Shown here: positions 13,160-32,399 of the stretch, piece by piece
How the letters are laid out: each line of letters starts with the position of its first letter
Position numbering within the stretch: the first letter of the stretch is position 1
DNA from: an uncultured delta proteobacterium
GTDB lineage: Bacteria; Desulfobacterota; Syntrophobacteria; BM002
Direction: 5' to 3'
DNA: 32,426 nucleotides
Assembly (NCBI GenBank): GCA_963712115.1
Contig: CAVQGX010000062.1
Span: forward strand, 1-32,426
Notes under the pieces: generated by a model
Database searches by the model: none
What the model was told of the DNA's origin: nothing
Seen by the model: only the letters and a program-made list of their open reading frames with translations
Translations under genes and position numbers: made by a program

Positions 13160-13324
13160 GCCAGACAACTGGTCTTCAACCAATGGGTGACTAAAGTGCT
13201 TAGGCTGGCCTCCATTTAGTCCGGCGAGGGTGAAGTATGCCCTCATGGCCACTAGGCACCCTCAAGTCATTACATTTAGCCTCAGTGCCTTTCTTTATCA
13301 CTAGGGTCAGGTTCGTCCATCTAC

Positions 13325-13532
13325 GGTCACTTGCCTTCGGCGTCATTCAGGCTGCCGCCCGTCATTAGGCCTCACGGCCGTCATTAAGTTGTTCCAAAGC
13401 CACAATGAGAGTTGACTAGACAGCGTAGCCTTAATGACCATAAATGACGCCGCAGGCATATTGACAGCGTAGCGTACTGACGACCACTTTCAGTGGCCAA
13501 ATGACTACGAGTGGCGGCGACGCCAAATGACC
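13325..13532. repeat. GTCATT/AATGAC-linked mini-hairpin chain element, copy 1
   Basis: Collinear with 28317-28516; shares units with 16691-16904 and 20791-20862. Confidence 0.85.
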
Positions 13533-13596
13533 CGGTGAAACTTCAGCGCCAATCCAACAATCCTCTAATTCCAGCATCTAGAAGAGCGCCACTCCC

Positions 13597-13625
13597 TTGA
13601 CTTGCCCATAGCAATGGGGCATAGT
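13597..13625 (+). promoter_or_regulatory. Possible sigma70 promoter of the Nudix operon
   Basis: TTGACT-17 bp-CATAGT; the spacer is an imperfect palindrome (TGCCCAT-AGCA-ATGGGGCA). Confidence 0.45.
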
Positions 13626-13687
13626 CCAAGCATCTCTGGTTAGCATCTGTAAATCCATATCTCTCCTCGCAGCAATAAGGAGCGCAA

Positions 13688-14455
13688 GTGATTAGCCCCG
13701 ATCTGTTACAGGATATCGAGGTCGTAGGAGAGGAAACTGGTGAACCGGTGTCACCTTTTGTGCGGCTTCGCAGGTTACAGCTAAGACATCGTTACAAAGA
13801 CGATCTCTATTCTCAATCCTATACCTTCGATATTGTTGAGGGTCCTTTTGCTGATGCAGTGGCAATTGCTCTCTACCACATCGACAGTAGAGGGAAGGTA
13901 TGGGTTGGCCTTCGGCGTGGGGTTAGGCCTTCAATATACCTAAGGAAGGACAATCCGGCTAAGGCTTTTCTGGACGCTCTGCCACGTCTAACTTACCTGG
14001 AGTTGGTGGCAGGGGGAATCGAGTATGATGATCTGGACAGCATTGGCATCAACGGCAGGGCCGCACTTGAAGTCATGGAAGAGGCCGGATATGAGGTAAA
14101 GGCTGAAGAACTGGTCAGCCTCGGTGGGGGCACTTTTTCATCTCCAGGTTTCGGCATGGAGAAAATATATTATCGGGCGGTAAAGGTGGATCCTCTTGAG
14201 GGAATGGAGCCGGGAGGTGACGGCCATCCCCTGGAAGAGGTAGGCGATTTTCAGTTTCATGAACTTTCCCAGGCGATTTCCTGGTGTCGCAGTGGCGAGA
14301 TAGAGGACGCCAAGACAGAGATAGGCCTGTACAGGTTGGCAAATTATCTCGGCTACCATCCCGAATTTGGTCTTTGGCGGAAGGAGTTGCCGCCTGACCT
14401 GCGTCAGAGGGTTCGCTCTCTAGGGCTTGGTCCTGGTCAATCTGAAAGGACATGA
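13688..14455 (+). CDS. Nudix hydrolase (ADP-ribose pyrophosphatase-like)
   Basis: ELVAGGIE...AALEVMEEAGY Nudix box (with insertion, lacking the canonical Arg), SPG..MEK, IEDAKT; AAGGAG RBS. Confidence 0.8.
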   Translation: MISPDLLQDIEVVGEETGEPVSPFVRLRRLQLRHRYKDDLYSQSYTFDIVEGPFADAVAIALYHIDSRGKVWVGLRRGVRPSIYLRKDNPAKAFLDALPRLTYLELVAGGIEYDDLDSIGINGRAALEVMEEAGYEVKAEELVSLGGGTFSSPGFGMEKIYYRAVKVDPLEGMEPGGDGHPLEEVGDFQFHELSQAISWCRSGEIEDAKTEIGLYRLANYLGYHPEFGLWRKELPPDLRQRVRSLGLGPGQSERT

Positions 14456-14844
14456 ATATGGGTTTGGTGACCGCAGCGCTGATCAGAGACGAAGATAAGA
14501 TCTTAATCGCCCAGAGGGGTAGGAACATGCGCTTTGGCTGGAAGTGGGAATTCCCTGGGGGTAAGGTAAGAGTGGATGAGACTCCTGAGGACTGCTTGCA
14601 GCGCGAGATCAAAGAGGAACTCAACCTAGAGATCCAGGTCGAAAAGCACTTTTGCACAACACATCACCAATATCCTGACTTCAACATCGAGCTGATCGCC
14701 TTCTGGTGCTCGATTGTAGGCGGCAAACTGAAATTGGCAGAACATGAACAGGTGCGTTGGGTGACTGTCCAGGAGATGAATCAATACAATTTTGTGGAGG
14801 CAGATCTGAACCTCATCACTGCCCTAGAAGAAATTCGGATATAG
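14452..14844 (+). CDS. MutT/NudG-like (d)NTP pyrophosphohydrolase
   Basis: WEFPGGKV..DETPEDCLQREIKEELN; ATGA overlap with the upstream gene. Confidence 0.9.
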   Translation: MNMGLVTAALIRDEDKILIAQRGRNMRFGWKWEFPGGKVRVDETPEDCLQREIKEELNLEIQVEKHFCTTHHQYPDFNIELIAFWCSIVGGKLKLAEHEQVRWVTVQEMNQYNFVEADLNLITALEEIRI

Positions 14845-14920
14845 TTCCCGGAGCACTGAGTGAAGTCCGAAACGGACGAGTAACACCATCTCAGTTAGAC
14901 GACAGAGGAAGTTTTGAGCC

Positions 14921-16093
14921 ATGAAAAAGAGAATTTCACCCTTGCTGGGGGCTAAAGAGGAACTTACCAAACGGGAAGCAAGTGTGCTTTCCCCATACGC
15001 TACCCTTAGCACAGCAGCCATCCGGAGGCGACCAGAAGAAAAGGTTGAAAGAGGGCACAGGCAACACTTCTCCCTGGATGGGGACAGAATACTCCATTCG
15101 CTGGCCTACACCCGCTACATCGACAAGACCCAGGTTTTCTACCTGGTTGACAATGACCACATTACTCACAGGGTTCTGCACGTCCAATTTCTTTCCAAGA
15201 TAGCTAGGGATGTTGGCCGTTTTCTCCGGTTGAATGAAGACCTCATCGAGGCCATTGCCCTTGGTCACGATATTGGACACGCCCCCTTCGGGCACGATGG
15301 TGAGCGGTACCTTTCCAATATCTGTCGTGGTCATGGGATTGGTGGATTTCAACACAACGTTCAGAGTGTCCGCTTCCTAGACCGCATAGAAAAGAAGGGC
15401 AAGGGTTGGAACCTTTCCCTCCAGGTGTTGGATGGTATTATTTGCCATGATGGGGAGATCCACGAGCAGAGCCTGAGGCCACAACCGGGCAAGACTTTTG
15501 CTGATCTCGACCGAGAAATGGAACTGAAAAGTGACGACCCGAGCGCAAATCTCACGCCTATGACCCTTGAAGGTTGTGTGGTGCGCCTTGCCGACACAAT
15601 TAGCTACATCGGCCGCGATATAGAAGATGCCATTAGGCTCAATCTCATAAGTCGAGAAGAGATCCCCCCAAACTGCGGCACTCTCTTGGGGACCACCAAT
15701 GGTGCAATTGTTTACAATCTAGTAGAAGATGTGATTAAAAATAGCATGGACAAAGACGGGGTGGGGTTCAGTCCTGAGGTCTCCGAAGCCCTTCGGGAGC
15801 TCAAGTCTTTTAACTACGATAGAATCTATCAAAACCCCAAAATTAAAGGTGAAGTGAGAAAGATTGGTCGTATGTTCGAGACTCTCTTTGAACTCTACTT
15901 GGAAGATTTTGCCAAAGAGAACCGCGAGTTCGACCTTTTCAGTGGTTTTCTTGACGGCATGTCCCGGGAGTACATAGACTCCCACTCACCAGCGGAAGTG
16001 GTTCGTGATTTCATTGCGGGGATGACTGATGAGTTCTTCATGAGGCAGTGCAACCTGCGGCTTTTGCCTCAGAGAATGCCCAGCCGCTTTTGA
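14921..16093 (+). CDS. dgt: dGTP triphosphohydrolase-like HD protein
   Basis: DRILHS, KTQVF, ALGHDIGHAPFGHDGE, ADTISY, DFIAGMTD. Confidence 0.88.
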   Translation: MKKRISPLLGAKEELTKREASVLSPYATLSTAAIRRRPEEKVERGHRQHFSLDGDRILHSLAYTRYIDKTQVFYLVDNDHITHRVLHVQFLSKIARDVGRFLRLNEDLIEAIALGHDIGHAPFGHDGERYLSNICRGHGIGGFQHNVQSVRFLDRIEKKGKGWNLSLQVLDGIICHDGEIHEQSLRPQPGKTFADLDREMELKSDDPSANLTPMTLEGCVVRLADTISYIGRDIEDAIRLNLISREEIPPNCGTLLGTTNGAIVYNLVEDVIKNSMDKDGVGFSPEVSEALRELKSFNYDRIYQNPKIKGEVRKIGRMFETLFELYLEDFAKENREFDLFSGFLDGMSREYIDSHSPAEVVRDFIAGMTDEFFMRQCNLRLLPQRMPSRF

Positions 16094-16149
16094 TTCAGGT
16101 TTCAGTGTTCAGGTTTCAGAAATGATAGACCTGAACACTGAAACCTGAA
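16094..16149. repeat. Period-7 perfect 21-bp hairpin (TTCAGGT family)
   Basis: TTCAGGTTTCAGTGTTCAGGT (16094-16114) and its exact reverse complement (16129-16149); starts right after the dgt stop. Confidence 0.88.
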
Positions 16150-16158
16150 GAATGAAAA

Positions 16159-16689
16159 ATGAGCATGGAAATCCTTAAAGTCGTGACCCTGATCATGCTG
16201 GTCTTGGCCATGCCTGCTGCCTTGATTGCGGTTGTCCTCGGTCTTCCAGGAACATGGCTAATATTGGTCACTTCCGTCCTTTATAGTTGGCTAACCGATT
16301 TTTCTGTAATCACCTATCAAATGCTCTTAGGTCTCCTTGTGCTTGCGGTTGCTGCGGAAGTTCTGGAGTTTTGGTCCGGTCTCTGGGGAGCCCGACGTTA
16401 TGGCGGTTCAAAAAAAGCAATGCTGGGGACGTTGATAGGCGGATTAGCTGGTGCAATTATTTTGACACCCATGCTTTTCGGATTTGGCGCTTTAGTGGGA
16501 GCTTTCTTTGGTGCTTTTGCCGGCGGATTTGTGGTTACCTATCTAGAACAAAGAAAAATGAACGAGGCGATGCGAGTGGGGTGGGGCGGCTTGCTGGGAC
16601 GGGTTTTTGCTATGGTTTTTAAAGGGGCGGCGGTGGTGACAATGATTGGTTTGGATGTCTGGGCGATATTCTTCGCCCAAAAGGCCTAA
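16159..16689 (+). CDS. DUF456-family membrane protein
   Basis: LPGTWLI, GARRYGGSKKAMLG; Gly-rich TM helices. Confidence 0.82.
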   Translation: MSMEILKVVTLIMLVLAMPAALIAVVLGLPGTWLILVTSVLYSWLTDFSVITYQMLLGLLVLAVAAEVLEFWSGLWGARRYGGSKKAMLGTLIGGLAGAIILTPMLFGFGALVGAFFGAFAGGFVVTYLEQRKMNEAMRVGWGGLLGRVFAMVFKGAAVVTMIGLDVWAIFFAQKA

Positions 16690-16690
16690 C

Positions 16691-16904
16691 GCCATAAGGC
16701 TTCCGCCCGTCATATGTGGTCATTTGGCTTCGCCGTCAATAGGGCTGGCGCCCGTCATTAGGCCTTACGGCCGTCACTTATGGTCATCTGTAATCATCTG
16801 CCTTTGCCTTCGGAGTCATTCATGTTCACTCATTGTTTGGTGACAATAAATGACAGCGAAGCCTAGTGACGGCCACGTGAGTGGCCAATTGACTACGAAT
16901 GACC
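16691..16904. repeat. Mini-hairpin chain element, copy 2
   Basis: GTCATTT-GGCTTCGCC-GTCAATA-GGGCTGGCGCCC-GTCATTA-GGCCTTACGGCC-GTCACTT ... AATGACAGCGAAGC; overlaps the YcaO stop codon. Confidence 0.85.
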
Positions 16905-18635
16905 AATCCCTAACTCTCCCTCCAGTTTGGCAAGGTTTTCCCGAGCAAAGTCTATTGTGGGATCCATCTCGAGGGCTATCCGATAAAGGCGGATTGCTTC
17001 TTTTTTGTGGCCCATCTCTCTCAGATTAGAACCGATATTGGCATAGTCAATGGCAGAACCTGGGTCTATCTCTAGAGCTTTTTCGAACTGTTCGATAGAT
17101 TGCTCATGCTTTTTGAGTTTGAAATAGCAAAAGCCCAAGACATTGTAAATTTCCTTAAGGTTAGGATCAAACTCACTCGCTCGTTCCAGAGCTTTGATGG
17201 CACCCTCATAATCCCCCATATCTTTGAAACAGACCCCTATATGGGTGTGCACACTGGCTATATCTAGGTGACGGGGACTTAAGTCCAAAGCTCTCTTAAA
17301 TTCTTCCAGTGCTTCCCTGGCTTTTCCTCGGTACTCAAGAACCAATCCCAGGAAGAAGTGCAGGTCGTAACGGCTGGGAAACAATTCAAGCAACCTTTGT
17401 ATTGCAGCGAGCGCCTGGGGACCGTCAATAGTCTGGCTGATTATCTTGGCAGCATGAAAGACGACACTGGTTTCTCTGGTACGATCTCGAAAATGGGCAC
17501 CCGGTATTATGGTATAGACAGACGGGATATCCAACTGTGGGTGAGTTACGTCTACGACCAGAACTTCCATGCCAAGACGGGAGAGTTTAGAGACACACCG
17601 CTCAATTTCAGTCTTGAAGTTGTTGTCGCTGAGATCGGGCAGACTTTTGATGGAAACCACAGGGGCCGAGGCCATTAAATACTCGGCTTCTTCCAGGCTC
17701 TTGTATTTGGGTAGGGTCGGCCGATAACTGGTGCGAAGCTCAAAATCTCCTGCCAGTTGAGCTATTTCTGTGAGGGCACGAACAAGAGATTTTTCTGCAT
17801 TGGGTGCAGTACCAGCTGTAAAGACGATCTCACTTCTTTCGGGAAAAGTGCTGGGATCCCAGGCCAGCGCACCCACTGTGGGAATGCCAGTGTCCAAAGA
17901 GAAGTCTTTTATAAAAACTTGGATGGACTGTGCTGCAAATTTGTCAAGGAGTTCCCTCGCTGCTGGATCTTGGACACTAGATGGATCGATACTGGGGGTA
18001 ATCAGCCGTTCGTTGCTGATCACCGAAGAGACGTGGCGCTCAACTACCTCACAGAGGCTCTGCAGGATAGCTTCCTCCAGCACGTTGCCTGCAGCAGGGC
18101 CGTTGTACTCGTTGATAGTGTAGAACCAATCGATAGGAATCAATACCTCTGTATTACGGGTGAGGTTGCAGGCCCGAGTCCAGCGAAAAGGCAGTTCTCT
18201 GAGGGCATAAGTGCCCAACTTAGGATCGGTTTCGCTGTCGTAGAGGGACTGCCAGAGCATTTCCATTGGCAGGGTGTTGCCGTCTAGTTCTGCGTAGGTT
18301 GCTGTGGGAAAAACCGTGTTTTTGATAAAGGAAAAGAAGCTGAAGCGCTCAGCAAGCTCCATTAAAGCACTAGCTTCCGCTTGGATCAGCGTACCTCCTT
18401 TGCCCATCTGCTTCTTGGTGCCCGTGAGAGGAACCACGTCTGTGCCGCAGAGGCTTATGTAAACGGGGATATCCAATCGACCGGTGTCGATGCGCATTGT
18501 TTGGTGCAAAATGTCCATATCCACGCTGGCGAACCTCTGCCGCACATGGGCCACCGTTTCTTCTGGGGTTCGCACTTTGTCCTGATCGTAAGTATAGGAT
18601 TTGAGCGCATCTTTTAGTTGAAAACAGCCACCCAT
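16893..18635 (-). CDS. YcaO-family protein fused to C-terminal TPRs
   Basis: GKG, MELAERF, NGPAAGNVLEEAILQSLCEVVERH, RALTEIAQ; about 4 TPRs after residue ~425; GAAAGGA RBS (TTG at 18638 is an alternative start). Confidence 0.9.
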   Translation of the reverse strand: MGGCFQLKDALKSYTYDQDKVRTPEETVAHVRQRFASVDMDILHQTMRIDTGRLDIPVYISLCGTDVVPLTGTKKQMGKGGTLIQAEASALMELAERFSFFSFIKNTVFPTATYAELDGNTLPMEMLWQSLYDSETDPKLGTYALRELPFRWTRACNLTRNTEVLIPIDWFYTINEYNGPAAGNVLEEAILQSLCEVVERHVSSVISNERLITPSIDPSSVQDPAARELLDKFAAQSIQVFIKDFSLDTGIPTVGALAWDPSTFPERSEIVFTAGTAPNAEKSLVRALTEIAQLAGDFELRTSYRPTLPKYKSLEEAEYLMASAPVVSIKSLPDLSDNNFKTEIERCVSKLSRLGMEVLVVDVTHPQLDIPSVYTIIPGAHFRDRTRETSVVFHAAKIISQTIDGPQALAAIQRLLELFPSRYDLHFFLGLVLEYRGKAREALEEFKRALDLSPRHLDIASVHTHIGVCFKDMGDYEGAIKALERASEFDPNLKEIYNVLGFCYFKLKKHEQSIEQFEKALEIDPGSAIDYANIGSNLREMGHKKEAIRLYRIALEMDPTIDFARENLAKLEGELGIGHS

Positions 18636-18682
18636 CAATTTCCTTTCATATTCCTTTCATAGTGGAAGCGTAGGATTATTGG

Positions 18683-18711
18683 TTTATAGGGCAACACCGG
18701 CATGATGTCAA
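18683..18711 (-). promoter_or_regulatory. Sigma70 promoter of ycaO-TPR
   Basis: Minus strand TTGACA-17 bp-TATAAA. Confidence 0.7.
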
Positions 18712-18826
18712 GCAGAGGGGGGCGAGTTAGATCATAACTTATGTGATCGCAACTGGGAGGTTACTCCTATATGACATGTATCAATTAACATGATTCCTGT
18801 AAGAGCGAGCTTTGCTTGCGATTTGG

Positions 18827-18920
18827 CTTCTGACCTCTGATCTCTGACCTCTGACTTCTGGACCCTACGACTTCGACGACTTCAACGAATCAACTAATTC
18901 TCTAATCAACTAATCAACGA
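18827..18920. repeat. Consecutive period-7, period-9 and period-8 arrays
   Basis: CTTCTGA CCTCTGA TCTCTGA CCTCTGA CTTCTGG; ACGACTTCG ACGACTTCA; ACTAATTC TCTAATCA ACTAATCA. Confidence 0.8.
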
Positions 18921-18936
18921 CGCTGTCTGGTAAACC

Positions 18937-19812
18937 CTATGATTTTGCTCTCTTGATGACTCGAAGAAGGCTAGTTGCCCCTTTTCCCCTGAAACGAGAG
19001 GGCAATCCTTTAACCCTTAACAGATCGTGCTTGTTTTCCGGTATCTCGCTCGCCAGCCGCACCATGAATTCGTTGTTCATTATTCGAAAGGGAGCTTTAT
19101 TAGTCTTGCGGGCTAAATGCTCCCGATAGGTAGACAGCTCTTTAAGAACTCGTGAGGAACTTTGAGACAATTTCTGGGCACCTCTTAACCGAAGGTAACC
19201 ATCTGGATCCCACTCTCTTGGAGGTTTAACCCGAATCCTTTCCAGTCGAGCAAAATCCTGCTTTGCCTGGTGCCAAAGATTACTCTCTATTAGCTGGCTG
19301 TGGAGTTGGTTCCTGAGCTTTATTAGAAAACGCGTGTCCTGCTGAGCGTAATAGAGTTGCTCTGGGTTCAAAGGACGCTTTTCCCAGTTGCAGCGCTGAT
19401 ATTTCTTGTTCATGGTAATGCCAAAATCCTCTGAGAGAATCCTAGCAAGTCCCAATCTTCTGCGGCCAAGAATCCGACAGGCTACGGAGGTGTCGAATAT
19501 ATTCATTACCTGGAAGCGATAGTCCCTTTTGAAACCAATAAGGTCGTTTTCAGCAGCATGGATAATCTTCTCTACAGAAGAGTCTGAGAGAATGCGACCA
19601 AGGCCAGTAAGGTCTTTCAAAGTCAGAGGATCAAGGATGAAATCTTTGTTGTTTGCGGAAATCTGGATGAGGCAGATACGCGGCCTGTAGGCAAAATAGC
19701 TATTTGACTCTGAGTCCACAGCCAAATGCTTTGCGTGGCTGATCTGTTCGATAAACCTGCCAAAGTCACGCTGAGTCGCAATCAGTTTCGGAGGATTCAT
19801 GGACGCTTTCAT
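18937..19812 (-). CDS. rnd: Ribonuclease D-like 3'-5' exonuclease with HRDC domain
   Basis: VDSES, CLIQIS, HAAEND, FDT, YAQQD (DEDDy); HRDC APFRIMNN; AGGAGA RBS. Confidence 0.85.
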   Translation of the reverse strand: MKASMNPPKLIATQRDFGRFIEQISHAKHLAVDSESNSYFAYRPRICLIQISANNKDFILDPLTLKDLTGLGRILSDSSVEKIIHAAENDLIGFKRDYRFQVMNIFDTSVACRILGRRRLGLARILSEDFGITMNKKYQRCNWEKRPLNPEQLYYAQQDTRFLIKLRNQLHSQLIESNLWHQAKQDFARLERIRVKPPREWDPDGYLRLRGAQKLSQSSSRVLKELSTYREHLARKTNKAPFRIMNNEFMVRLASEIPENKHDLLRVKGLPSRFRGKGATSLLRVIKRAKS

Positions 19813-19860
19813 AACACATTCTCCTATGCTATAAAAGAACTATATTTGTGCGAGTTCACA

Positions 19861-20595
19861 ATGAAAAAAAGACGTAAAAAGAAAAGTTCTGCAGCCTCGA
19901 GCCCGGTATCCAATGAGAGCTTCAATGCTCCCTTTGCTGGACTGGATGAAATGCTTAAGCAGACAGAAGTTCAACCGTTAGCAGTAAGTGAAGAAGCTGA
20001 ACCAGAGAGAGTAAGGGCTGGAGAAGAAGATAATTTGTTTCGAGAGGCTATGGCTGGTGTAGAGACTCTTGACTGCAACAGAGTGGAACCGAGAGAGCCT
20101 GGCCCCCTGGCCAAACCCAGCCGACGGCCAATGTTGGAGGAAGAGTTGGAGGCCTATGCTCAGCTGGTTGACCTAGTTAGCGGTGATGGCAGTTTTGATA
20201 TTCAATATACGGACGAATATATCGAGGGCGCGATTGTAGGGGCTGACCCTGAACTACTGACTAAGTTGCGATGCGGCGATTTCTCCATTCAGACTCATTA
20301 TGATCTCCACGGTATGACGGCAGCCGAGGCCAGGGAGGCTGTGGAACGGTTCATCCTTTCCAGTGTGGTCAAAGGGCTCAGATGCGTTCTGATCATCCAC
20401 GGCCGGGGACTCAATTCGCAGGATCAGATGCCGGTTCTCAAAGAACGCATGTCAAGCTGGCTCAAGCGTGGTCGCTTGAAGCGTTTGGTTCTCGCATTTG
20501 CCACGGCGCAACCCTGTGACGGCGGCGCCGGGGCTATGTATTTGCTTTTGCGTAAACGTTTACCGATGGAAGCCGGTAACGCAAAAAAGGGTTAA
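19861..20595 (+). CDS. Smr-domain protein
   Basis: DLHGMT, IIHGRG, DGGAGAMY. ATG at 19861 avoids overlap with the divergent rnd; TGcTATAAA at 19827-19835. Confidence 0.88.
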   Translation: MKKRRKKKSSAASSPVSNESFNAPFAGLDEMLKQTEVQPLAVSEEAEPERVRAGEEDNLFREAMAGVETLDCNRVEPREPGPLAKPSRRPMLEEELEAYAQLVDLVSGDGSFDIQYTDEYIEGAIVGADPELLTKLRCGDFSIQTHYDLHGMTAAEAREAVERFILSSVVKGLRCVLIIHGRGLNSQDQMPVLKERMSSWLKRGRLKRLVLAFATAQPCDGGAGAMYLLLRKRLPMEAGNAKKG

Positions 20596-20619
20596 ACCAA
20601 AAGGCACGAAGGAGGCTAA

Positions 20620-20950
20620 GCGCAGGGAGCATAGCGCTCTCCGCTGCGAGACGAGATGTCGGGCGAGACGGGGATTGAAACGCGGAAGTCGGAACGCGGA
20701 ACGTGGAATTCTTTGGTGCGCTGATGGCCAACGGGCTAAACCGCCAAAACTGGCTCAACAGTCTAAACAGGCGAGAGGCATCGGGCACCAGCGCTTCGCT
20801 CCTGTAAAGCTTCGCGTCATTAGGCTTCGCCGTCATTAGGTCAATACGCTTCGCTGTCATTTGTTGTAATAGGTAGGTCGGAGGTCAGGGGTAAAGCTGA
20901 TCTCTGATCTCCGACTTCTGACCTCTGTGATGGACGACTTGAACGATTTG
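20620..20950. repeat. Mosaic of about 8 repeat modules, including the left copy of the 159-bp inverted repeat (20782-20940)
   Basis: Modules match elements at 25-122, 10553, 18827, 23200-23457 and 27437. Confidence 0.88.
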
Positions 20951-20979
20951 AGCAACGGACCTTGAATGAGGAGATCACC

Positions 20980-21606
20980 ATGATCAATAAGTTAGTTAAA
21001 AATTTGACCTGGCTCGGTCACGACGGTTACCGTATCGAAGGGGATCTAGTGATTTACTTTGATCCTTACGAAATAGAAGGGGGAAAGCCCGCTGACCTCA
21101 TTTTTATAACTCATGAGCATTTCGATCATTGCTCACCGGCCGATGTGACCAAGATCAAGAAAGATGACACGGTCATTGTCACAGATGTGGCCTCAGCTAA
21201 AAAGCTCAAGGGTGACATCAAGACTATGAGGCCCGGAGACCACTTGAATGTGAAGGGTGTTGAGATACAGGCAGTCCCGGCCTACAACTTAAACAAGCAA
21301 TTCCATCCAAAAAACGCAGATATGCTCGGGTTTGTTGTAAACATAGGTGGGGTAAGGCTCTATCATGCAGGTGATACCGATTTCATCCCGGAGATGAAAG
21401 AGGTCGACACGGATATTGCTCTGCTGCCGGTATCCGGCACCTATGTGATGACCGCTGACGAGGCGATTCAAGCGGCAGAGGCAATAAATCCCAAGGTCGC
21501 AATACCCATGCACTATGGTGCCATCGTGGGGGATAAAAGCGATGCAGCACATTTCCGAGATCAACTGGCTGGCAAGATCGAGGTGGTCATTCTGGAGAAA
21601 GAGTAG
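20980..21606 (+). CDS. Metallo-beta-lactamase-fold hydrolase (Lactamase_B_3-like)
   Basis: WLGH, DPY, THEHFDH, YHAGDT, IPMHY; GAGGAG RBS. Confidence 0.9.
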   Translation: MINKLVKNLTWLGHDGYRIEGDLVIYFDPYEIEGGKPADLIFITHEHFDHCSPADVTKIKKDDTVIVTDVASAKKLKGDIKTMRPGDHLNVKGVEIQAVPAYNLNKQFHPKNADMLGFVVNIGGVRLYHAGDTDFIPEMKEVDTDIALLPVSGTYVMTADEAIQAAEAINPKVAIPMHYGAIVGDKSDAAHFRDQLAGKIEVVILEKE

Positions 21607-21672
21607 CTGGCCCAGCAATTGAAGAATAGGCTTGTTGAACCACGGAGGTTACAGAGGACGGGAAGAACATTA

Positions 21673-21739
21673 AGGTTTCAGTGTTCAGGTGTCAGGTTTT
21701 ACACTCTATTTTTCTCTTTCCTGACACCTGAAACCCTGA
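21673..21739. repeat. Period-7 hairpin (TTCAGGT family), second copy
   Basis: AGGTTTC AGTGTTC AGGTGTC AGG ... CCTGACA CCTGAAA CCCTGA. Confidence 0.8.
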
Positions 21740-21792
21740 GATGTGGTGCTTGGAGTCTGGAATTTAATTTGAATGGATGAGGGTGATATCTA

Positions 21793-22041
21793 GTGGAAAA
21801 TCCGAGCTTTTATTTTTGGATAGGTTTGGCTCTAGGAATCGTTGCCGGGATAGTAGGAACATTGATCTATGGAAAAATTCGAGGCTTTTTTGCTAAATCG
21901 GAAGTTGCTAAATTGCGGCAAGAAAATCGAACACTAAAACAACGGTTAGAGAAAAAGGACAAGCATATCCAAGAGATGATGTATCATACCGAAAAAATCG
22001 CCGCGGGTCTGGCTGATCAAGCAGACAGGAAGAAAGATTAA
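21793..22041 (+). CDS. Small hypothetical protein (one TM helix plus coiled coil)
   Basis: Hydrophobic N-terminus, heptad-like C-terminus; GAGGG upstream of GTG. Confidence 0.7.
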   Translation: MENPSFYFWIGLALGIVAGIVGTLIYGKIRGFFAKSEVAKLRQENRTLKQRLEKKDKHIQEMMYHTEKIAAGLADQADRKKD

Positions 22042-22061
22042 ACTCATCCTTCCCCTTCTCC

Positions 22062-23084
22062 TTAGCTCTCAACGCTCTTATTAAACTGCCGAACTACAAA
22101 GCGACCGAGATTAGAAACCTCCGCCTTAGTGAGGTGAGCATCTAGATTGCCCAGGGGAATCTCAGCGCGGGCCATGGCCCGGTGACCACCGGCACTTCCC
22201 AGTTTGCCAAAGGCTTTAATCGCCCAGGTCCCAGCGTTTTTTCTGAACCCATCGTTGCGGATAACCACCACCAGGTTTTTGTTGTAAACACCCGAGACTA
22301 TTGTCCAGCCCACTTCGTGACATCTCATGAAAAAATCTGCAACCAGGACGAGGATATCTGCCGATTGAACATTGTCGAGGTGGGAGAAGACCTTGCCTTT
22401 TATGATCCGCTTGCTTTCCAAAGCCTGCTGGAAGTATCTGAGATCTCTGACCCCCATATCGGCCATCTCTATTTTCCGCAGCAAGTTCATATTGGCGAGG
22501 GGGAAGAGGTATCGAAAGGCTTTCACATCCTCTTCCAATGCTTGTAGCTCAAAATTGTGCGTGTCCACACGGATGGCGTAGAGAAGAGCGGTGGCTAGAC
22601 TCTTGGAAGGGCGAATTTTAGCTGAGCGCAAATATTCGGTCATCATAGTCGCGGTTGCGCCGTAGTTGGGTCGAATGTCCACAAAGTCCGCTTCTACTGC
22701 CATGGTAATGGGATGATGATCTATGACAGCATGGTAATTAAAATCGCCGAAGGCCTCGTGGTGGTGAGGTTGACCATCAACGAGGAGGGTTTTGGAAAAA
22801 TCCTTGGAATCAACCTGTTGAAGTTTAACCAGGGGGATTTTTAATAGGCGGACCATGGTGGAGTTGTCGAAGCGAACAATTTCATTGAAGTGAGCAATGG
22901 TAACTGATTGGACTTTGTGCCAGAGTAGCCGCTTGAGGGCAATGGCCGATGCCATGGCGTCCGGATCGGCATCAATGGTGATCAGGACACGGTCTTTTGA
23001 CTCGAAGAGGCTGAAGAGCTTGTTGAGGTTTTCGCTGATAGATCGAGGTCTTGCGGAGCGGAGTCGCGAGCTGCTAGAGGCCAT
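22062..23084 (-). CDS. DHH/DHHA1 phosphoesterase (NrnA-like)
   Basis: DADPDAMAS, VD, IDHHP, DT, AGGH. Confidence 0.88.
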   Translation of the reverse strand: MASSSSRLRSARPRSISENLNKLFSLFESKDRVLITIDADPDAMASAIALKRLLWHKVQSVTIAHFNEIVRFDNSTMVRLLKIPLVKLQQVDSKDFSKTLLVDGQPHHHEAFGDFNYHAVIDHHPITMAVEADFVDIRPNYGATATMMTEYLRSAKIRPSKSLATALLYAIRVDTHNFELQALEEDVKAFRYLFPLANMNLLRKIEMADMGVRDLRYFQQALESKRIIKGKVFSHLDNVQSADILVLVADFFMRCHEVGWTIVSGVYNKNLVVVIRNDGFRKNAGTWAIKAFGKLGSAGGHRAMARAEIPLGNLDAHLTKAEVSNLGRFVVRQFNKSVES

Positions 23085-23112
23085 GTCGTAGTCTCTTTAC
23101 TTTTTTTTGCTA

Positions 23113-23142
23113 AAGATATCCACAGTTTGGCTATTTTGTCAA
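23113..23142 (-). promoter_or_regulatory. Possible sigma70 promoter of the DHH gene
   Basis: Minus strand TTGACA-18 bp-TATCTT. Confidence 0.45.
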
Positions 23143-23199
23143 CAACTGTTCAACAGTGCCACAAGCTACGGCCCAGGTCAAGCTCATTTTTCATTTATT

Positions 23200-23457
23200 A
23201 GCATGGAGCACGGAGCATAGAGCATGGAGCATGGCGTCAGATGGTGCAAATCGTTCAAATCGTTGAAACCGTTAAAGTCGTCCATCACAGAGGTCAGAAG
23301 TCGGAGATCAGAGATCAGCTTTACCCCTGACCTCCGACCTACCTATTACAACAAATGACAGCGAAGCGTATTGACCTAATGACGGCGAAGCCTAATGACG
23401 CGAAGCTTTACAGGAGCGAAGCGCTGGTGCCCGGTGCCTAGTCCCTAGTGTCTAGTT
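23200..23457. repeat. Repeat mosaic including the right copy of the 159-bp inverted repeat (23275-23433)
   Basis: GCATGGA-type x5; period-9 AAATCGTTC array; exact reverse complement of 20782-20940; GTGCCTA array. Confidence 0.9.
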
Positions 23458-23490
23458 GAAGCCGAGGCCTGCTGCAGGGACCGTTACATG

Positions 23491-23519
23491 TTGACTCTGC
23501 AATGCCCATTTGCTATGTT
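23491..23519 (+). promoter_or_regulatory. Sigma70 promoter of xerD
   Basis: TTGACT-17 bp-TATGTT with TGn extension. Confidence 0.6.
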
Positions 23520-23598
23520 CTCGACGATTTTAGGAAAAATAGAATTATGTGAGGTTAAACAGAAATTCTCTTCGAATGAAAAATGTGAAATACGGAAC

Positions 23599-23731
23599 TT
23601 GGGCCCCGACCAACAGGTCGGGGACTGAGCCTCCGGCCCGTAGGGCCTACGCCCCGGAGGGCGGAGCGAAGTGAGCGCGAAGTCACTGGGAACCCGCTTG
23701 CGGGCCTGAGCGGAGCGAAGCGAGCGCGAAG
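23599..23731. repeat. Tandem REP-like hairpin units, the first carrying a 32-bp nested hairpin
   Basis: Hairpin + CTGAGCGGAGCGAAGYGAGCGCGAAG occurs twice; the first is interrupted at 23630-23661. Confidence 0.7.
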
Positions 23732-23740
23732 AAATAACAA

Positions 23741-24634
23741 ATGACCATGGAGACCCATCTTGATCTTTATTTAGACTATCTCACAGTTGAAAGAGGGCTT
23801 GCCCCTAATACTAGAGCCTCTTACAGTGCTGATTTGCTAAAATTTCTGACTTACCTTAAAGATCGTGAGATAAGTGACTGGAGTCAGGTTGGTTACTCCG
23901 AGGTCATGGGTTTCCTCTCTCAGTCTCAGGAACAGGGCTTGGCGCCTAGAAGTAGGGCAAGACTGCTTTCGGCGCTCCGTGGCTTTTTTAAATTTATGGT
24001 GCGAGAGAGCCACCTCAGGGAAAGTCCGGTGGCAAACTTAACCTCCCCTCGCCTCCGGCGCCAGCTTCCTTCTGTGTTGAGTGTCGCAGAAGTAGAGCGA
24101 CTTTTGGCCCGACCTAATCCTAAGCTGACGCTGGGCCAAAGAGACGCTGCCATGTTAGAGCTTCTCTATGGAACCGGACTACGAGTTTCAGAGTTGGTCA
24201 CCCTTACTTTGGGGCGAGTCAACCTTGAGGTAGGTTTTCTAGTTGTACTGGGAAAAGGATCCAAAGAGCGCATTGTGCCAGTAGGGGAGGCTGCTACGGA
24301 AGCGGTGCGACGCTATCTGTTGGAGTCCCGCCCTCGCTTGTTAAAAGGGAGGATGACCGAGACCCTCTTTGTCACTAATCGAGGAGCGGCAATGACCAGG
24401 CAGGGCTTTTGGAAATTAATCAAAAAATATGGGCGTGAAGCTGGACTCAAGCAAGAGCTAACCCCGCATAGCCTGCGGCACTCCTTTGCCACCCACCTCC
24501 TTGAGCGCGGGGCCGACTTGCGTTCAGTACAGATGATGCTTGGGCATGCTGACATTAGCACCACTCAGATTTATACTCATGTGGCCAGGGAGAGACTGAG
24601 AGAGGTTCATAAGAAGTACCACCCGCGGGCCTAA
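23741..24634 (+). CDS. xerD: Site-specific tyrosine recombinase XerD
   Basis: GLRVSE, GKGSKER, TRQGFW, HSLRHSFATH, LGH, TQIYTH; context upstream of scpAB. Confidence 0.93.
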   Translation: MTMETHLDLYLDYLTVERGLAPNTRASYSADLLKFLTYLKDREISDWSQVGYSEVMGFLSQSQEQGLAPRSRARLLSALRGFFKFMVRESHLRESPVANLTSPRLRRQLPSVLSVAEVERLLARPNPKLTLGQRDAAMLELLYGTGLRVSELVTLTLGRVNLEVGFLVVLGKGSKERIVPVGEAATEAVRRYLLESRPRLLKGRMTETLFVTNRGAAMTRQGFWKLIKKYGREAGLKQELTPHSLRHSFATHLLERGADLRSVQMMLGHADISTTQIYTHVARERLREVHKKYHPRA

Positions 24635-24639
24635 AGACT

Positions 24640-24726
24640 GACGCGGCGATAGGGAGACCCGGAGAGACGGCGACTGTACTGAGTTATTTTCTTCTCCGCG
24701 TCTCCGTGTCACCGTCTCACCGTTTC
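24640..24726. repeat. Period-8 inverted-arm hairpin
   Basis: GACGCGGC GATAGGGA GACCCGGA GAGACGGC ... TCTCCGCG TCTCCGTG TCACCGTC TCACCGTT. Confidence 0.78.
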
Positions 24727-24744
24727 TTTCCGCTCAGAAACGAG

Positions 24745-24753
24745 TGGTAGAAT
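24745..24753 (+). promoter_or_regulatory. Extended -10 element
   Basis: TGgTAGAAT, 38 nt before the TTG start. Confidence 0.4.
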
Positions 24754-24791
24754 TTTTGAGGTAGAACTGGCTAAGGGTGCTAGGTTACTAA

Positions 24792-27443
24792 TTGGGTAGA
24801 CCTGTGGAAATCATCACCACTCACATAAATGCTGATTTTGACGCCATGGCGTCCATGATTGCCGCAAGCAAGCTATACCCAGAGGCGGTCATGGTGTTTC
24901 CAGGCTCGCAGGAGCATAACCTTAGAGAGTTTCTGGTAGAGTCCACCTTCTACTTCTTTAATTTCGCCAAAATAAGAGATCTGGAATTTACTAGAATTAG
25001 CCGTCTCATTCTGGTCGATACCAGGCAGGCGGGACGTATAGGGAAATTCGAGAACTTGGTAAAAGAGAAAAAAGTTGACATCCACATATACGATCATCAC
25101 CCCGATTCTGAAGATGATGTTTCTGGATCCATAGAGGTGGTAAAACCAGTTGGGGCCACCGTCACCATCCTCACCGAACTTATCAGGGAGCGTGGCATCC
25201 AACTCACGCCTGATGAGGCCACCATCCTCACTTTAGGTATCTACGAAGATACCGGCTCATTTACATTTTCATCCACCACTCCAGCGGACTACGAAGCCGC
25301 CCGCTTTCTTCTCACCCAGGGAGCAAATCTCAATATGGTGTCCGATATGCTCACGCGGGAGCTGACAGCAGAACAAATTTCGCTCCTGAATGATCTGATC
25401 CACTCGGCCACCACTCACACGATCAATACCATCCCAATTTGCATTGCCCGGGCTTCAGTGGATAAGTACATAGGGGATTTCGCTTTGCTGGTTCATAAAC
25501 TTATGGACATGGAAAACCTTAATGTGTTATTCGCCCTGGCCCGAATGGAAGACCGTATCTACATGGTGGCGCGTAGCCGTTTGCCTGAAATTAACGTGGG
25601 AGAAATTGCTGCGGTCTTTGGCGGAGGTGGTCACTCCAGTGCTGCCTCGGCAACCATAAAGGCCCTTACTTTGATCCAAGTTGAAGAAGAACTTTTCCGA
25701 ATTCTCCAGAGCTGGATTAATCCCAAACAGAGGGCAAAACACCTGATGTCGTCCCCGGTCATATCGGTTCCACCTAAACTTAGCCTGCAAGAGGCCGCTG
25801 ACCTTCTAACGCGCTATAACATCAACGCTGCTCCGGTGTTAGATGGAGAACTTCTGGTGGGCATTCTTTCGCGTCAAATGATAGACAAAGGCATATATCA
25901 CGGTCTTAAGGACGTACCTATAAGTGACTTCATGGGGACAGAATTCAGTAGCGTATCCCCTGATGCTTCCTTGATTGAAATTCAGGAGCATCTGGTGGAT
26001 CTGCAGCAGCGATTACTTCCTGTGGTGGAGGGGAACAAGGTGGTTGGAGTTATTACCCGCAAGGACCTACTCAATACACTGTTACACGACCCGAGCCGGA
26101 TTCCCACCTACCTTTACGAACCCGTCCACCAAGCAGAGAACAAGCGCCGCAAGAATGTCTCGAATGTAATGAGAGAACAGTTGCCCCGCCGGATCAACGA
26201 AATATTAGAGGAAGCGGGAAGGGCTGCTGCAGAGCATGATTACAAGGCTTACGCAGTAGGAGGTTTTATCCGCGATCTAGTGTTGCGACGGCCGAACCTG
26301 GACATTGATATTGTGGTGGAGGGCGACGGCATCGTCTTTGCCAAGGATTTTGCTCAAAGCTATGATGCTCGGGTGAGATCTTATAAGAAGTTTGGCACGG
26401 CGGTAGTGATTTTTCCTGACGGCTTCAAGATTGATGTGGCCACTGCCCGGCTGGAGTATTACGAGTACCCAGCAGCTTTGCCCACAGTTGAACTGAGCTC
26501 TCTTAAACTGGATCTTTACAGACGTGATTTCACTATAAACACCCTGGCGGTGGAGTTGAACCCAGGCAGATTCGGCAAGTTGATAGATTATTTCGGAGCC
26601 CAGAGGGATTTCAAAGACAAGGCCATCAGGGTTCTTCACAATTATAGCTTTGTGGAGGATCCCACGCGAGTTCTTCGGGCTATTCGGTATGAGCAGCGCT
26701 TGGGTTTTCGCATTATGAAACATACCTCCAACCTCATTGAGAATGCAGTGAAGATGAAACTGCTTGTGGAGTTGAGTGGCAGGCGACTTACAAACGAGCT
26801 CAAATTGATACTAAGTGAGGAGAATCCCATTCCTGCCATCAACAGAATGAACGAGTACAACCTTTTACCTTTCCTTCATCCTGATATCCAATACGGATCT
26901 TCGGTGGAGCGGCTCTTGAGAGAGATCGGCTCAGTGCTGGCTTGGTACGATCTTAGCTTTATCAAAAACGGCTGTGACAGATGGCTGGTTTACCTTTTGG
27001 CTCTCATTGATCCTTTGAGCCCCATAGGGCTAGAGGATTTCTGCATCAAAATGGAGTTCCCGCCGCGTCTCGCAAGCTTGCTGGTGGAGGGCAGGGAAAA
27101 GGCTATTTCTGTTGGGAGAGGGTTTTATCGCAAACCTGACCTGAAGCCGAGTGAGATCTATCACCTATTGGAAGGTCTTGGTACAGAGTGGCTACTGTTC
27201 ATAATGGCAAAAACCCAGCAGGAAGACACGCGACGTGCTATAAGTCGCTATTTCCGCGATCTGAAAGATGTGCGGCCGAAGTTGCGCGGCAGAGACTTGA
27301 AAGACATGGGAATTACACCTGGGCCGGTTTATCGCCGGATCCTCGATCAACTTCTCGCCGGCCGACTAAATGGGGAGTTGTCGAGCAGAGAAGAGGAGAT
27401 GGAATTTGTTCGGCAGCACTTTTTAGAGGCAGCGAAGATGTGA
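24792..27443 (+). CDS. DHH-DHHA1-CBS-CBS-tRNA nucleotidyltransferase (probably A-adding)
   Basis: HINADFD, DHH, GGGGH; CBS pair; VGGFIRD, DIDIV, DLYRRDFTIN, EDPTRVLRA. Confidence 0.9.
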   Translation: MGRPVEIITTHINADFDAMASMIAASKLYPEAVMVFPGSQEHNLREFLVESTFYFFNFAKIRDLEFTRISRLILVDTRQAGRIGKFENLVKEKKVDIHIYDHHPDSEDDVSGSIEVVKPVGATVTILTELIRERGIQLTPDEATILTLGIYEDTGSFTFSSTTPADYEAARFLLTQGANLNMVSDMLTRELTAEQISLLNDLIHSATTHTINTIPICIARASVDKYIGDFALLVHKLMDMENLNVLFALARMEDRIYMVARSRLPEINVGEIAAVFGGGGHSSAASATIKALTLIQVEEELFRILQSWINPKQRAKHLMSSPVISVPPKLSLQEAADLLTRYNINAAPVLDGELLVGILSRQMIDKGIYHGLKDVPISDFMGTEFSSVSPDASLIEIQEHLVDLQQRLLPVVEGNKVVGVITRKDLLNTLLHDPSRIPTYLYEPVHQAENKRRKNVSNVMREQLPRRINEILEEAGRAAAEHDYKAYAVGGFIRDLVLRRPNLDIDIVVEGDGIVFAKDFAQSYDARVRSYKKFGTAVVIFPDGFKIDVATARLEYYEYPAALPTVELSSLKLDLYRRDFTINTLAVELNPGRFGKLIDYFGAQRDFKDKAIRVLHNYSFVEDPTRVLRAIRYEQRLGFRIMKHTSNLIENAVKMKLLVELSGRRLTNELKLILSEENPIPAINRMNEYNLLPFLHPDIQYGSSVERLLREIGSVLAWYDLSFIKNGCDRWLVYLLALIDPLSPIGLEDFCIKMEFPPRLASLLVEGREKAISVGRGFYRKPDLKPSEIYHLLEGLGTEWLLFIMAKTQQEDTRRAISRYFRDLKDVRPKLRGRDLKDMGITPGPVYRRILDQLLAGRLNGELSSREEEMEFVRQHFLEAAKM

Positions 27444-27516
27444 GATGAGACGGGGTTGCCAAACCAATTTGTTCGGAGTATTCATCCCACATCCCACATC
27501 TCAGATCACACATCCA
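27437..27516. repeat. Period-7 inverted-arm element (GATGTGA / CATCCCA family)
   Basis: GATGTGA GATGAGA ... CATCCCA CATCCCA CATCTCA GATCACA CATCCA; contains the upstream stop codon. Confidence 0.72.
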
Positions 27517-27549
27517 TTTAGACCCCGAGGGGGATAAAACTAGATAACA

Positions 27550-28290
27550 ATGCTGCAAGATTATGAGATCAAACTAGAAATCTTTGAAGGCCCCATGGAT
27601 TTGTTACTCCACCTAATAAGAAAGAACAAAGTGGACATCTACGACATTCCCATAGCCCTCATTATGGACCAGTACCTAAAGTACCTTGACATGATGAGAA
27701 GCCTTAACATAGATGTTGCCGGGGATTTTTTGGAAATGGCGGCCACGCTGGCATATATCAAGTCCCGCATGTTGGTGCCGAGGGTCGGTTCCGAGGAGGA
27801 GGACGAGGAGGAAGACCCACGCCTGGAATTAGTGAGGCCGTTGCTGGAGTACGTGAAGATAAAAGAGGCCGCTCAGACTCTAGCAGGCAATTTGCAGTTG
27901 GATCGGGATGTCTACGTGCGAAACATCCCAACCGAAGAGTTGTGGGGCATGGAAGGAAGTGAGGAAATTGCCGAGGTGGGTCTCTTTGCCCTGGTTAATG
28001 CTCTCCACGAGGTCTTGAAAAGGGCTGAGCCTGGAGATTTCATGGAGGTGAGCGCAGATACTATGCGGCTCAAGGACAGAATCTCCCAACTTATGGAAAT
28101 TCTGTCAGGTGTTAGTAGTATAACCTTCCACGAACTCTTTCAGGGAAAAGCCAGGAAGATGGAGATGATCCTCACTTTTCTAGCTATCCTTGAACTGGTG
28201 CGGTTGCAGATGGTCCGAGCTTTTCAGCATCAACCCAGTGGCATTATTCGGCTCTACCTTGCGGTTGATGGTGACATCATGGCCAGTTAG
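27550..28290 (+). CDS. scpA: Segregation/condensation protein A
   Basis: FEGPMDLLLHLI, MAATL..IKSRML, TFLAILEL. Confidence 0.95.
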   Translation: MLQDYEIKLEIFEGPMDLLLHLIRKNKVDIYDIPIALIMDQYLKYLDMMRSLNIDVAGDFLEMAATLAYIKSRMLVPRVGSEEEDEEEDPRLELVRPLLEYVKIKEAAQTLAGNLQLDRDVYVRNIPTEELWGMEGSEEIAEVGLFALVNALHEVLKRAEPGDFMEVSADTMRLKDRISQLMEILSGVSSITFHELFQGKARKMEMILTFLAILELVRLQMVRAFQHQPSGIIRLYLAVDGDIMAS

Positions 28291-28316
28291 CAGAAAACTG
28301 TATGGGGGATCTTTAA

Positions 28317-28516
28317 GTCATTTGGCTCACGCCGTCATTGCGCTACGCTGTCATTTGCTACGCGTCACTTGGGCTGGCGCTCGTCATAAGGCCTTACGGC
28401 CGTCATTAAGTTGTTTCAGCACCACAATGACAGGTAACTATGAATGACAGCGTAGCGTATTGACCTAATGACCATAAATGACGCCGAAGGCATATTGACA
28501 GCGGAGCGTAATGACC
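28317..28516. repeat. Mini-hairpin chain element, copy between scpA and scpB
   Basis: Six GTCA-led units, then AATGAC/TTGAC-led units; collinear with 13325-13532. Confidence 0.88.
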
Positions 28517-28592
28517 CGCTTACCCGAATGGCAGATGATACCCTGAGCTTTCCAATACTCGGGCGAAATTTATCGTAGTGGAGACATACCCC

Positions 28593-32279: not shown

Positions 32280-32399
32280 CCCAGTGAAGGAATCAGCGAT
32301 GAGAAATTGACTTCGGTCCTGTCGGTGTTACCTGTTGATTTGAGTTGCATGATTCGGCACGGTGGTGTATAGAAATTTCACCCACGAGGGGTAAGACGT

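Follow-up and report, generated by a model that had tools for sequence, protein, structure and literature searches.

Chains of AATGAC words and mini-hairpins in a Syntrophobacteria genome as probable arms of a foldback cassette related to 23S rRNA intervening sequences

The intergenic repeat described here was analyzed in an uncultured delta proteobacterium (GTDB lineage Desulfobacterota; Syntrophobacteria; BM002; assembly GCA_963712115.1). The window corresponds to contig C62 (CAVQGX010000062.1, 32,426 nt) in its full length, and the genome, G000, comprises 4.9 Mb in 70 contigs with 48.9% G+C. The repeat consists of chains of the word AATGAC interspersed with very short hairpins. As such arms bracket a gene of the PF05635 family, the window copies can be read as empty or solo arms of a foldback cassette of the same kind as the intervening sequences (IVSs) of 23S rRNA genes, the full copies in the window being gene-less derivatives; we consider this reading probable. 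A full cassette would be organized as (hairpin-GTCATT)n, a leader of ~30 nt with a ribosome-binding site, a four-helix-bundle gene of ~120 codons (PF05635 / TIGR02436, Avd-like), a short trailer and (AATGAC-hairpin)n, while the three full window copies would retain the arms and 20-50 nt of the inner ends, in spacers between ordinary genes.

The chains are far more frequent than expected by chance. The pattern ATGAC-N3-20-WTGAC-N3-20-WTGAC has 11 matches in the window, compared with a mean of 0.07 and a maximum of 1 in 100 dinucleotide-preserving shuffles, none of which reaches 11. A genome-wide scan for [AT]TGAC-hairpin units, suggested in the initial annotation of the window, yielded 126 same-strand clusters of [AT]TGAC feet (at least four feet within 40 nt) versus 13 for the reversed motif, and a looser parse of the genome gave 318 chains. 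Merging chains of at least four feet results in 167 elements with a total length of 17.3 kb, 143 of which lie outside called open reading frames (ORFs), although called ORFs make up ~79% of the genome. The unit TGAC-AGCGNAGCGTA-N-TGAC is present in 143 genomic copies, and its backwards control in none. All five repeat sites named in the initial annotation read as described, and the AATGAC/mini-hairpin repeat itself is confirmed.

The grammar of the arms is simple and directly observed. Consecutive TGAC feet are separated either by a short spacer, most commonly CTAA (62 times) or CATAAA (21 times), or by a hairpin with a G/C stem plus one to three A/T bases. The hairpin types are AGCGNAGCGT (with all four nucleotides seen at N), GCCGAAGGC, GGCGAAGCC, GGCCGTAAGGCC, GGGCGCCAGCCC and GGCCAC-N5-GTGGCC; their stem letters vary (GC, GCC, GGC, GGCC, GGGC, GGCCAC), hence the pairing is kept while the letters change. 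Within 250 nt a GTCAT arm is followed by an ATGAC arm in 56 cases, and the opposite order is seen in 2. The feet thus face a short core and the hairpins lie outward, with recurrent gaps of 18, 22, 47 and 104 nt corresponding to core families.

The loops are strongly biased with respect to the strand. Among 608 hairpin-scored units of the genome, 363 have G..A loops on the TGAC strand and 21 have T..C loops, and for distinct unit types the respective numbers are 157 and 19 of 371; units outside these two classes are mostly spurious 2-bp pairings in non-hairpin spacers. All four letters are found at the middle loop base (GAA 154, GTA 55, GCA 47, GGA 27), and cassettes with 2-bp stems are the commonest (162 of 608). 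Moreover, in an independent set of 74 loci selected by protein similarity (see below), G..A loops account for 103 of the 129 GC-stem units, and T..C loops are absent. The constraint of the loops to G-N-A, proposed in the initial annotation, is therefore well above chance. The same annotation placed hairpin substitutions in the loops, and this is correct for the segments 13432-13481 and 28466-28515, which differ in 3 of 50 positions; two of the differences change the central base of a loop (GCA/GAA, GTA/GGA), and the third falls in a linker. The proposed strand specificity needs a qualification: the structure is indeed polar, with G..A loops on the foot strand, but the polarity is relative to the core and not to one genomic strand, so that reading outward from the core on either strand one meets ATGAC and then a hairpin with a G..A loop.

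Evidence for the partner gene comes from loci of other genomes, selected by an exact-pattern scan with one genome per species. At least 108 loci were obtained, from metagenome-assembled genomes (MAGs) of Deltaproteobacteria, Syntrophobacterales and Desulfobacteraceae, from Fibrella, Spirosoma, Mucilaginibacter and Calditrichaceae, and from Cloacimonadota, Nitrospinia, Ignavibacteriales and KSB1; the layout of left arm, core and right arm is the same in loci of other taxa. When every ORF with a length of 80 aa or more in 108 of these loci was clustered blindly, one small family recurred, PF05635 (23S-rRNA-IVS), in three phyla. This four-helix-bundle family also matches PF22296 (bAvd), and its closest solved relative is 2GSC (five chains). 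A reverse transcriptase as an Avd-like partner was considered and rejected, PF00078 having no matches in G000 and being restricted to 4 of the 21 genomes, with no relation to the number of repeats.

The genome studied here has 14 PF05635 matches. Each of the 13 inspected ones has a short word repeated in mirror-image fashion on its two sides, and this word differs between the copies. Arms of the GTCAT/ATGAC type flank the genes C52:9194-9508 and C3:31748-32062, the latter containing a stop codon. Only 2 of the 167 genomic elements carry the gene, one of them with a stop codon, and more than 98% are gene-less. Five element-bearing genomes from four other phyla have 5-15 PF05635 copies each, whereas any copy was found in 1 of 14 control genomes. 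At least three shared inverted 7-mers were found in the 120-nt flanks of 35 of 40 PF05635 genes from seven genomes (median 11), compared with 8.7% of 219 random control ORFs of 100-200 aa; one of the misses (own_C18) is an artefact of the ORF start, as its arms are visible on inspection.

A maximum-likelihood tree of the 40 proteins includes six with ATGAC arms, of which this genome contributes two, a related MAG one, and Nitrospinia, Fibrella and Calditrichaceae one each. These six and one GTTCATT-armed protein, from Mucilaginibacter, form a single clade with support 100/100 on a branch of 2.32. The clustering of the ATGAC-armed proteins was matched in none of 500 label shuffles, and a common arm word is also seen in two further sister pairs that span phyla.

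The association was also approached from the protein side. An alignment of ten clade members retrieved 80 metagenome loci, and in 74 of them (55-75% identity, GC content 31-62%) each side extends for 150 nt or more. Inward-facing feet are present on both sides in most of them, at least two in 65 and at least three in 53 of the 74 loci, compared with 4 in the opposite-orientation control. The leaders differ, yet in 67 of the 74 loci the 3' flank contains ATGAC three times or more, and TGAC is preceded by AA in 617 of 817 cases. The link between the arms and one protein clade across phyla is thus observed directly.

Within the genus, all five clade genes found in congeners (two in G005, two in G014 and one in G007) have arms, and the five cassettes share GTCAT arms, a leader starting with GTCATTAGGTTGTTAACTGAAAGGGGG... 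and a trailer ending with ...CAGCAATTGAC before the ATGAC arm. Several other four-helix-bundle genes were also noted. The gene L161 (G031:C16, from another family of the class) encodes a 36%-identical four-helix bundle and has more distant ATGAC-type arms, (GAGTCGTTGGGTCATT)n on the 5' side and (ATGACTTA)n interleaved with a longer repeated block on the 3' side. The 3' flank of L132 (Calditrichaceae, G043) is a run of CCCCTGC heptamers, 16 or more in number, a corresponding 5' arm being absent from the 170 nt shown, and L130 and L140 (Nitrospinia, G042) are near-identical genes with CTTACTG-type heptamer flanks in direct orientation.

Some gene-less copies can be compared with cassettes directly. 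The core of the copy at C31:248853 consists of GTCATTAGGTTGTTA and CAACAATTGAC, matching the leader start and the trailer end of cassette L163 (15/15 and 10/11, respectively), and hence looks like a cassette from which the gene was removed; a MITE (miniature inverted-repeat transposable element) likewise shares its ends with a longer gene-bearing element while lacking the gene. Copies with 47-nt cores resemble the inner ends of the C52 cassette; on the 5' side the score is 46, where shuffles reach 35 at most, and on the 3' side the match is weaker. About 15 unlinked copies, including the C31:248853 copy and the first and third copies of the window, form one family with 84-93% identity over 134-152 nt and cores starting with GTCATTAAGTTGTT.

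The distribution of the unit among 40 relatives is directly observed: it is present in 17 of 17 congeners and in one other genus of the family, and in none of the other 22 genomes. A clade protein (at least 67% identity) is found in 4 of the 19 unit-bearing genomes, G000, G005, G014 and G007, and these are the four genomes richest in the unit, with 143, 98, 75 and 37 copies, followed by a genome with 28. Completeness is not the cause, as the protein is absent from G008 (96%), G010 (95%) and G009 (93%), where 11-14 units are found. Turnover of the copies is seen in the scpA-scpB spacer, which carries the ATGAC element in this genome only and in none of ten congeners; it is bare (76-100 nt) in four of the ten, has 121 nt and no chain in G011, and contains unrelated heptamer-type repeats in G012, G002, G007, G009 and G014. 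Two other window spacers behave in the same way.

We infer the mode of movement and the cause of the G..A loops as follows. In a read-through transcript the arms would pair and be cut by RNase III, as is known for rRNA IVSs, and such cutting-out from host transcripts would allow insertion inside operons such as scpA-scpB. Predicted folding is consistent with this: the left and right arms of the element pair (z = -5.5 as RNA and -4.9 as DNA), and in the RNA of the full C52 cassette the arms close on each other in both the minimum free energy and the centroid structures. The AATGAC word may be read by the clade's own protein, because arm pairing needs only complementarity, yet the word is constant across phyla, and the protein, as the only clade-specific component, is the candidate reader. 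Acting in trans, the protein would favour the spread of empty copies.

The mini-hairpins could be compact spacers folding on the single-stranded ATGAC strand, and this need would place the G..A loops there and not on the opposite strand. The melting temperatures given in PMC13037366, 76.5 °C for d(GCGAAGC), 33 °C for its pyrimidine-loop variant GCTTTTGC and 39 °C for r(GCGAAAGC), suggest by analogy that mini-hairpins with 2-bp stems would be stable in DNA but not in RNA, and on no strand other than that of ATGAC. It is possible, though we put it forward tentatively, that something acts on the single-stranded ATGAC strand, the hairpins drawing neighbouring feet together. An equally tentative proposal is that the four-helix-bundle protein is a sequence-specific AATGAC reader on single-stranded DNA, driving foldback copying together with host replication or repair. 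If so, the cassette would be mobile while lacking a conventional transposase, its mini-hairpins would mark the strand and the state (single-stranded DNA) that is read, and dispersed heptamer repeats, rRNA IVSs and a very large "unknown" protein family would belong to one system.

Several observations weigh against the foldback-cassette explanation or its mechanism. The cassette contains no catalytic gene, and we know of no recombinase that is a helix bundle of ~120 aa. Neither a target-site duplication nor a clean empty site was found among the congener spacers, which are bare or carry other repeats and are too diverged or repeat-filled for the junctions to be aligned. In gene-less copies the cassettes of one arm do not mirror those of the other one by one, which makes for an imperfect paired stem, and a few family members have direct flanks (L130, Nitro_L130, has an inverted score of 0 and a direct score of 20). 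The closed single-contig genomes G002, G011, G013 and G018 have 7-21 units without a clade protein. Moreover, the dose relation comes from kin, which are not independent, and its direction could be the reverse, since more arms could give a gene-bearing copy a better chance of surviving. Joint phylogeny of protein and arms is equally expected from plain co-descent, and the cutting of these arms by RNase III is proposed by analogy.

Compatible with the foldback-cassette reading, but rather unlikely, is a process at a smaller scale, in which the hairpin cassettes are themselves tiny mobile units landing in AATGAC arrays. This would agree with the plain arms of some cassettes, such as C52, with (CTAATGAC)4, and the similar L266, and with the bare spacers that constitute 382 of 635 units in the protein-selected loci. 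Copies of one family differ by whole TGAC-bounded cassettes, with loose ends at 28515, and individual cassette types are met again in other orders and in other phyla. However, unequal crossing-over between repeated feet also adds and removes cassettes, no donor/empty-site pair was isolated for a single cassette, and no enzyme is known for such movement.

It is improbable that the elements are immobile RNA elements serving the host (mRNA stabilizers, RNase III sites or terminators), with the gene as a passenger. Their spacers do include every orientation of the flanking genes (88 co-directional, 29 convergent and 21 divergent), convergent contexts being mildly enriched (29 of 138 elements versus 566 of 3996 in the background), and they fold strongly as RNA. 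Contigs from the RNA-library runs X15 and X16 also cover the repeat, but contigs cannot show transcription. On the other hand, the orthologous congener spacers lack the element or contain unrelated repeats, near-identical 150-nt composites are found at unlinked loci, and the 2-bp stems of the commonest cassettes are weak as RNA (a melting temperature of 39 °C for the r(GCGAAGC) type, PMC13037366). No T-run terminators were found. A promoter or terminator role was rejected, as no element-borne sites were detected beyond trivial mini-hairpins; the overall counts came close to those expected from shuffles (20 promoter-like sites versus 13.4, and 17 terminator-like sites versus 15.8). Contigs from both DNA and RNA-library runs stop at the element edges, and the summed depth rises over 28344-28511 in both alike, because many copies collapse there; one X16 contig joins 28274 to 28593, with a 31-nt side at 90% likeness, and may come from a relative.

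The initial annotation considered the element to be similar to repetitive extragenic palindromes (REPs), bacterial interspersed mosaic elements (BIMEs) or REP doublets forming hairpins (REPINs), that is, units cut and moved as single-stranded DNA by a REP-associated tyrosine transposase (RAYT) or another Y1/HUH enzyme. As to the build, it was right: the elements are dispersed, modular, intergenic and palindromic, combining a foot and a hairpin in opposed orientation and in mosaic clusters, with interchangeable cassettes and a foot that is not GTAG. As to the enzyme, the proposal is very improbable. The genome has four Y1/HUH genes, none of which is bracketed by ATGAC chains. Two of them represent one insertion sequence (IS) of the IS200 type with its own ends, and the RAYT-like gene C20:238180-238446 scores 60.9 bits against a cut-off of 80 bits and is flanked by different G/C-run hairpins. 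The IS200 gene situated 150 bp from one copy, on C56, is explained by the IS having landed beside a pre-existing element, since C27:31525-31658 has the same flank and element without the IS. There is neither a GTAG nor a CGTC tag, the foot being [A/T]TGAC, and the constant partner across phyla is PF05635 and not a Y1 enzyme. RAYT or IS200 was accordingly rejected as the element's enzyme.

Two loci met in this connection are of separate interest. At C20:238000-238640 the RAYT-like gene (its score being against NF047646) lies between similar hairpins of the GGGGCGGGG/CCCCGCCC type, and may belong to a separate small REP system. C56:7500-8165 and C27:31525-31760 are two versions of one locus, with and without the IS200-type insertion of ~680 bp; strain heterogeneity or duplication is possible, the genome contamination being 5.99%.

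Another very improbable alternative is that slippage at hairpin-prone spacers repeatedly produced microsatellite-like arrays, with no dedicated protein and a convergent likeness across phyla. It agrees with the period-7 arrays of many words in most window spacers and with the commonness of heptamer repeats in many bacteria (PMC4679880), but hardly explains why an identical 6-nt word is accompanied by the AGCGNAGCGT cassette and by a single protein clade in at least four phyla at a GC content of 31-62%, or the reversed-pattern control (0 versus 143), and the protein-first flank test has largely refuted it.

All five window sites lie between protein genes, and none is in a 23S or 16S rRNA helix. 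The first copy has its left arm at 13252-13383 (minus strand), where an outer CTAGGCAC word is followed by six feet (GTCAT on the plus strand, ATGAC on the minus strand) and by hairpin cassettes including GCCTTCGGC, GGCTGCCGCCC and GGCCTCACGGCC. Its core, 13384-13412, starts with TAAGTTGTT, the first bases of the cassette leader, and its right arm, 13413-13532 (plus strand), has seven TGAC feet and the cassettes AGCGTAGC, GCCGCAGGC, AGCGTAGCGT, GACCAC-TTTCA-GTGGCC and GGCGGCGACGCC. The left arm of the second copy (16691-16818, minus strand, seven feet) begins directly after the stop codon of a DUF456 gene (16159-16689), its core (16819-16840) is of a type different from those of the first and third copies, and its right arm (16841-16904, plus strand, five feet) abuts the 3' end of the convergent gene 16893-18638 (minus strand). 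The product of the latter, 581 aa in length, is a YcaO cyclodehydratase domain fused to C-terminal TPR repeats. The third copy occupies the scpA-scpB spacer: the left arm (28317-28405, minus strand, six feet) starts 27 nt past the scpA stop codon, the core (28406-28427, 22 nt) belongs to family A (TAAGTTGTTTCAGCACCACA...), and the right arm (28428-28516, plus strand, seven feet) ends 62 nt before scpB (28578-29150).

The two half-copies, 20791-20862 and 23353-23424, are contained in a 174-nt inverted repeat, 20776-20949 and 23266-23439, with 98% complementarity. In the first solo arm (20776-20949, minus strand) the GTCAT chain occupies 20791-20862, and after it come TTGTTGTAATAGGTAGG and a small foldback composed of GTCGGAG-type heptamers; the second (23266-23439, plus strand) is the mirror image of the first and is followed by GTGCCTA heptamers at 23434-23456. 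Their interpretation as transposon ends with a cargo of MBL-fold and DHH genes was rejected by conserved synteny, the order and orientation of the Smr, DHH and integrase genes being constant in 17 of 17 congeners. As the genes flanked by the pair keep their order and orientation throughout the genus, the pair represents solo arms in two neighbouring spacers. The XerC/D-like integrase gene 23741-24634, syntenic in all congeners, was likewise rejected as a private recombinase. The MBL gene (20962-21606, between the solo arms) is present in many congeners, e.g. G009 and G013, and unmatched in G002, G012, G007 and G016; its absence from these four closest congeners corresponds to a loss or gain beside the arms. 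Co-oriented solo ATGAC arms also occur elsewhere in the genome, at C36:3044-6823 and 30304-33886, where they punctuate a run of small ORFs with a spacing of ~1 kb. Before each of these arms stand CTCCGAC-type heptamers and CCTACCTATTACAACAA, and after it heptamers of other kinds (GCCTTGC, GTGCCTA).

Most intergenic spacers of the window are occupied by tandem arrays with a period of 7, whose words are of many kinds (42-71, 10513-10581, 10969-11029, 12373-12471, 16094-16157, 18829-18918, 20679-20708, 23200-23234, 27483-27515, 30074-30099 and 32122-32280). The arrays 42-71 and 20679-20708 share the unit AACGCGG. Between the HD-domain and DUF456 genes, 16094-16119 (TTCAGGT) and 16129-16157 (ACCTGAA...) form an inverted pair resembling an empty hairpin of another arm type.

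In the Rfam search, which addressed a possibility raised in the initial annotation, the window has no matches at gathering score (the best permissive one, mir-75 with E 0.023, is noise). The literature search, with subscription journals and supplements outside its scope, returned neither ATGAC/GTCAT arms nor PF05635 genes with repeat arms outside rRNA; in the searched literature the PF05635 cassette family was found described only inside rRNA genes, and an earlier description is possible. The proteins of PF05635/TIGR02436 were still regarded as functionally uncharacterized in 2024 (PMC11270868), and intergenic heptamer arrays are a long-standing puzzle according to the heptamer paper of MacGregor (PMC4679880), which does not mention the PF05635 gene. 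Both problems become unusually tractable in the present system, as it combines a fixed word of 6 nt with a single protein clade, empty copies in the hundreds and a relation between protein presence and repeat count. The DNA-stable G..A mini-hairpins on one strand indicate which strand to test, and the question of IVS protein function becomes a binding assay with defined oligonucleotides. In practical terms, these repeats break assemblies at contig ends and occupy operons such as scpA-scpB.

Among known systems, the ORF-bearing 23S rRNA IVSs of Coxiella burnetii (S23p) and Leptospira encode proteins of the same family, PF05635/TIGR02436, with the gene in the loop of an inverted repeat. The IVS of C. 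burnetii has terminal inverted repeats, a 28-bp stem and heptameric repeats at its arms, and its arm stem is cleaved by RNase III in vitro; rRNA IVSs are regarded as selfish and horizontally moved, and Ralph and McClelland proposed that the IVS ORF serves mobility (all as presented in PMC4990558). Unlike them, the element described here is found outside rRNA, in mRNA spacers, and is gene-less in more than 98% of copies, and its arms are made of the AATGAC word with inserted G..A-loop mini-hairpins instead of a plain stem. Avd of diversity-generating retroelements has a homologous four-helix-bundle fold (PMC10053308), while no reverse transcriptase is found beside the cassettes. With REP, BIME and REPIN elements the chains share opposed foot-hairpin units, mosaic structure and hundreds of MITE-like intergenic copies (PMC3116915, PMC3733652). 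They differ from REPs in having G/C-only stems of 2-6 bp, no GTAG/CGTC tag, no unit-flanked RAYT and a helix-bundle partner; the CGTC-tagged REPs of Di Nocera (2013) have 8-9-bp stems starting with A-T pairs and a CCA tail, and TGAC or GTCA feet do not appear in the text of that GTAG/CGTC survey (PMC3733652).

A literature search for foldback elements turned up only eukaryotic families and unrelated bacterial MITEs. Eukaryotic foldback transposons, such as FB of Drosophila, have long inverted ends composed of short subrepeats, a variable middle and many gene-less copies, and are far larger than the cassettes considered here. Cyanobacterial small dispersed repeats (SDRs), reportedly described by Elhai in 2008, are said to be hairpin units of 21-27 nt in heptamer (STRR) arrays and mini-transposons. 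SDRs are named as unexplained in PMC3116915. The features that are new here are the hairpin-cassette type of arm with its G..A rule, the large gene-less expansion, the protein-first count of armed loci, and the relation between the presence of the clade protein and the number of repeats.

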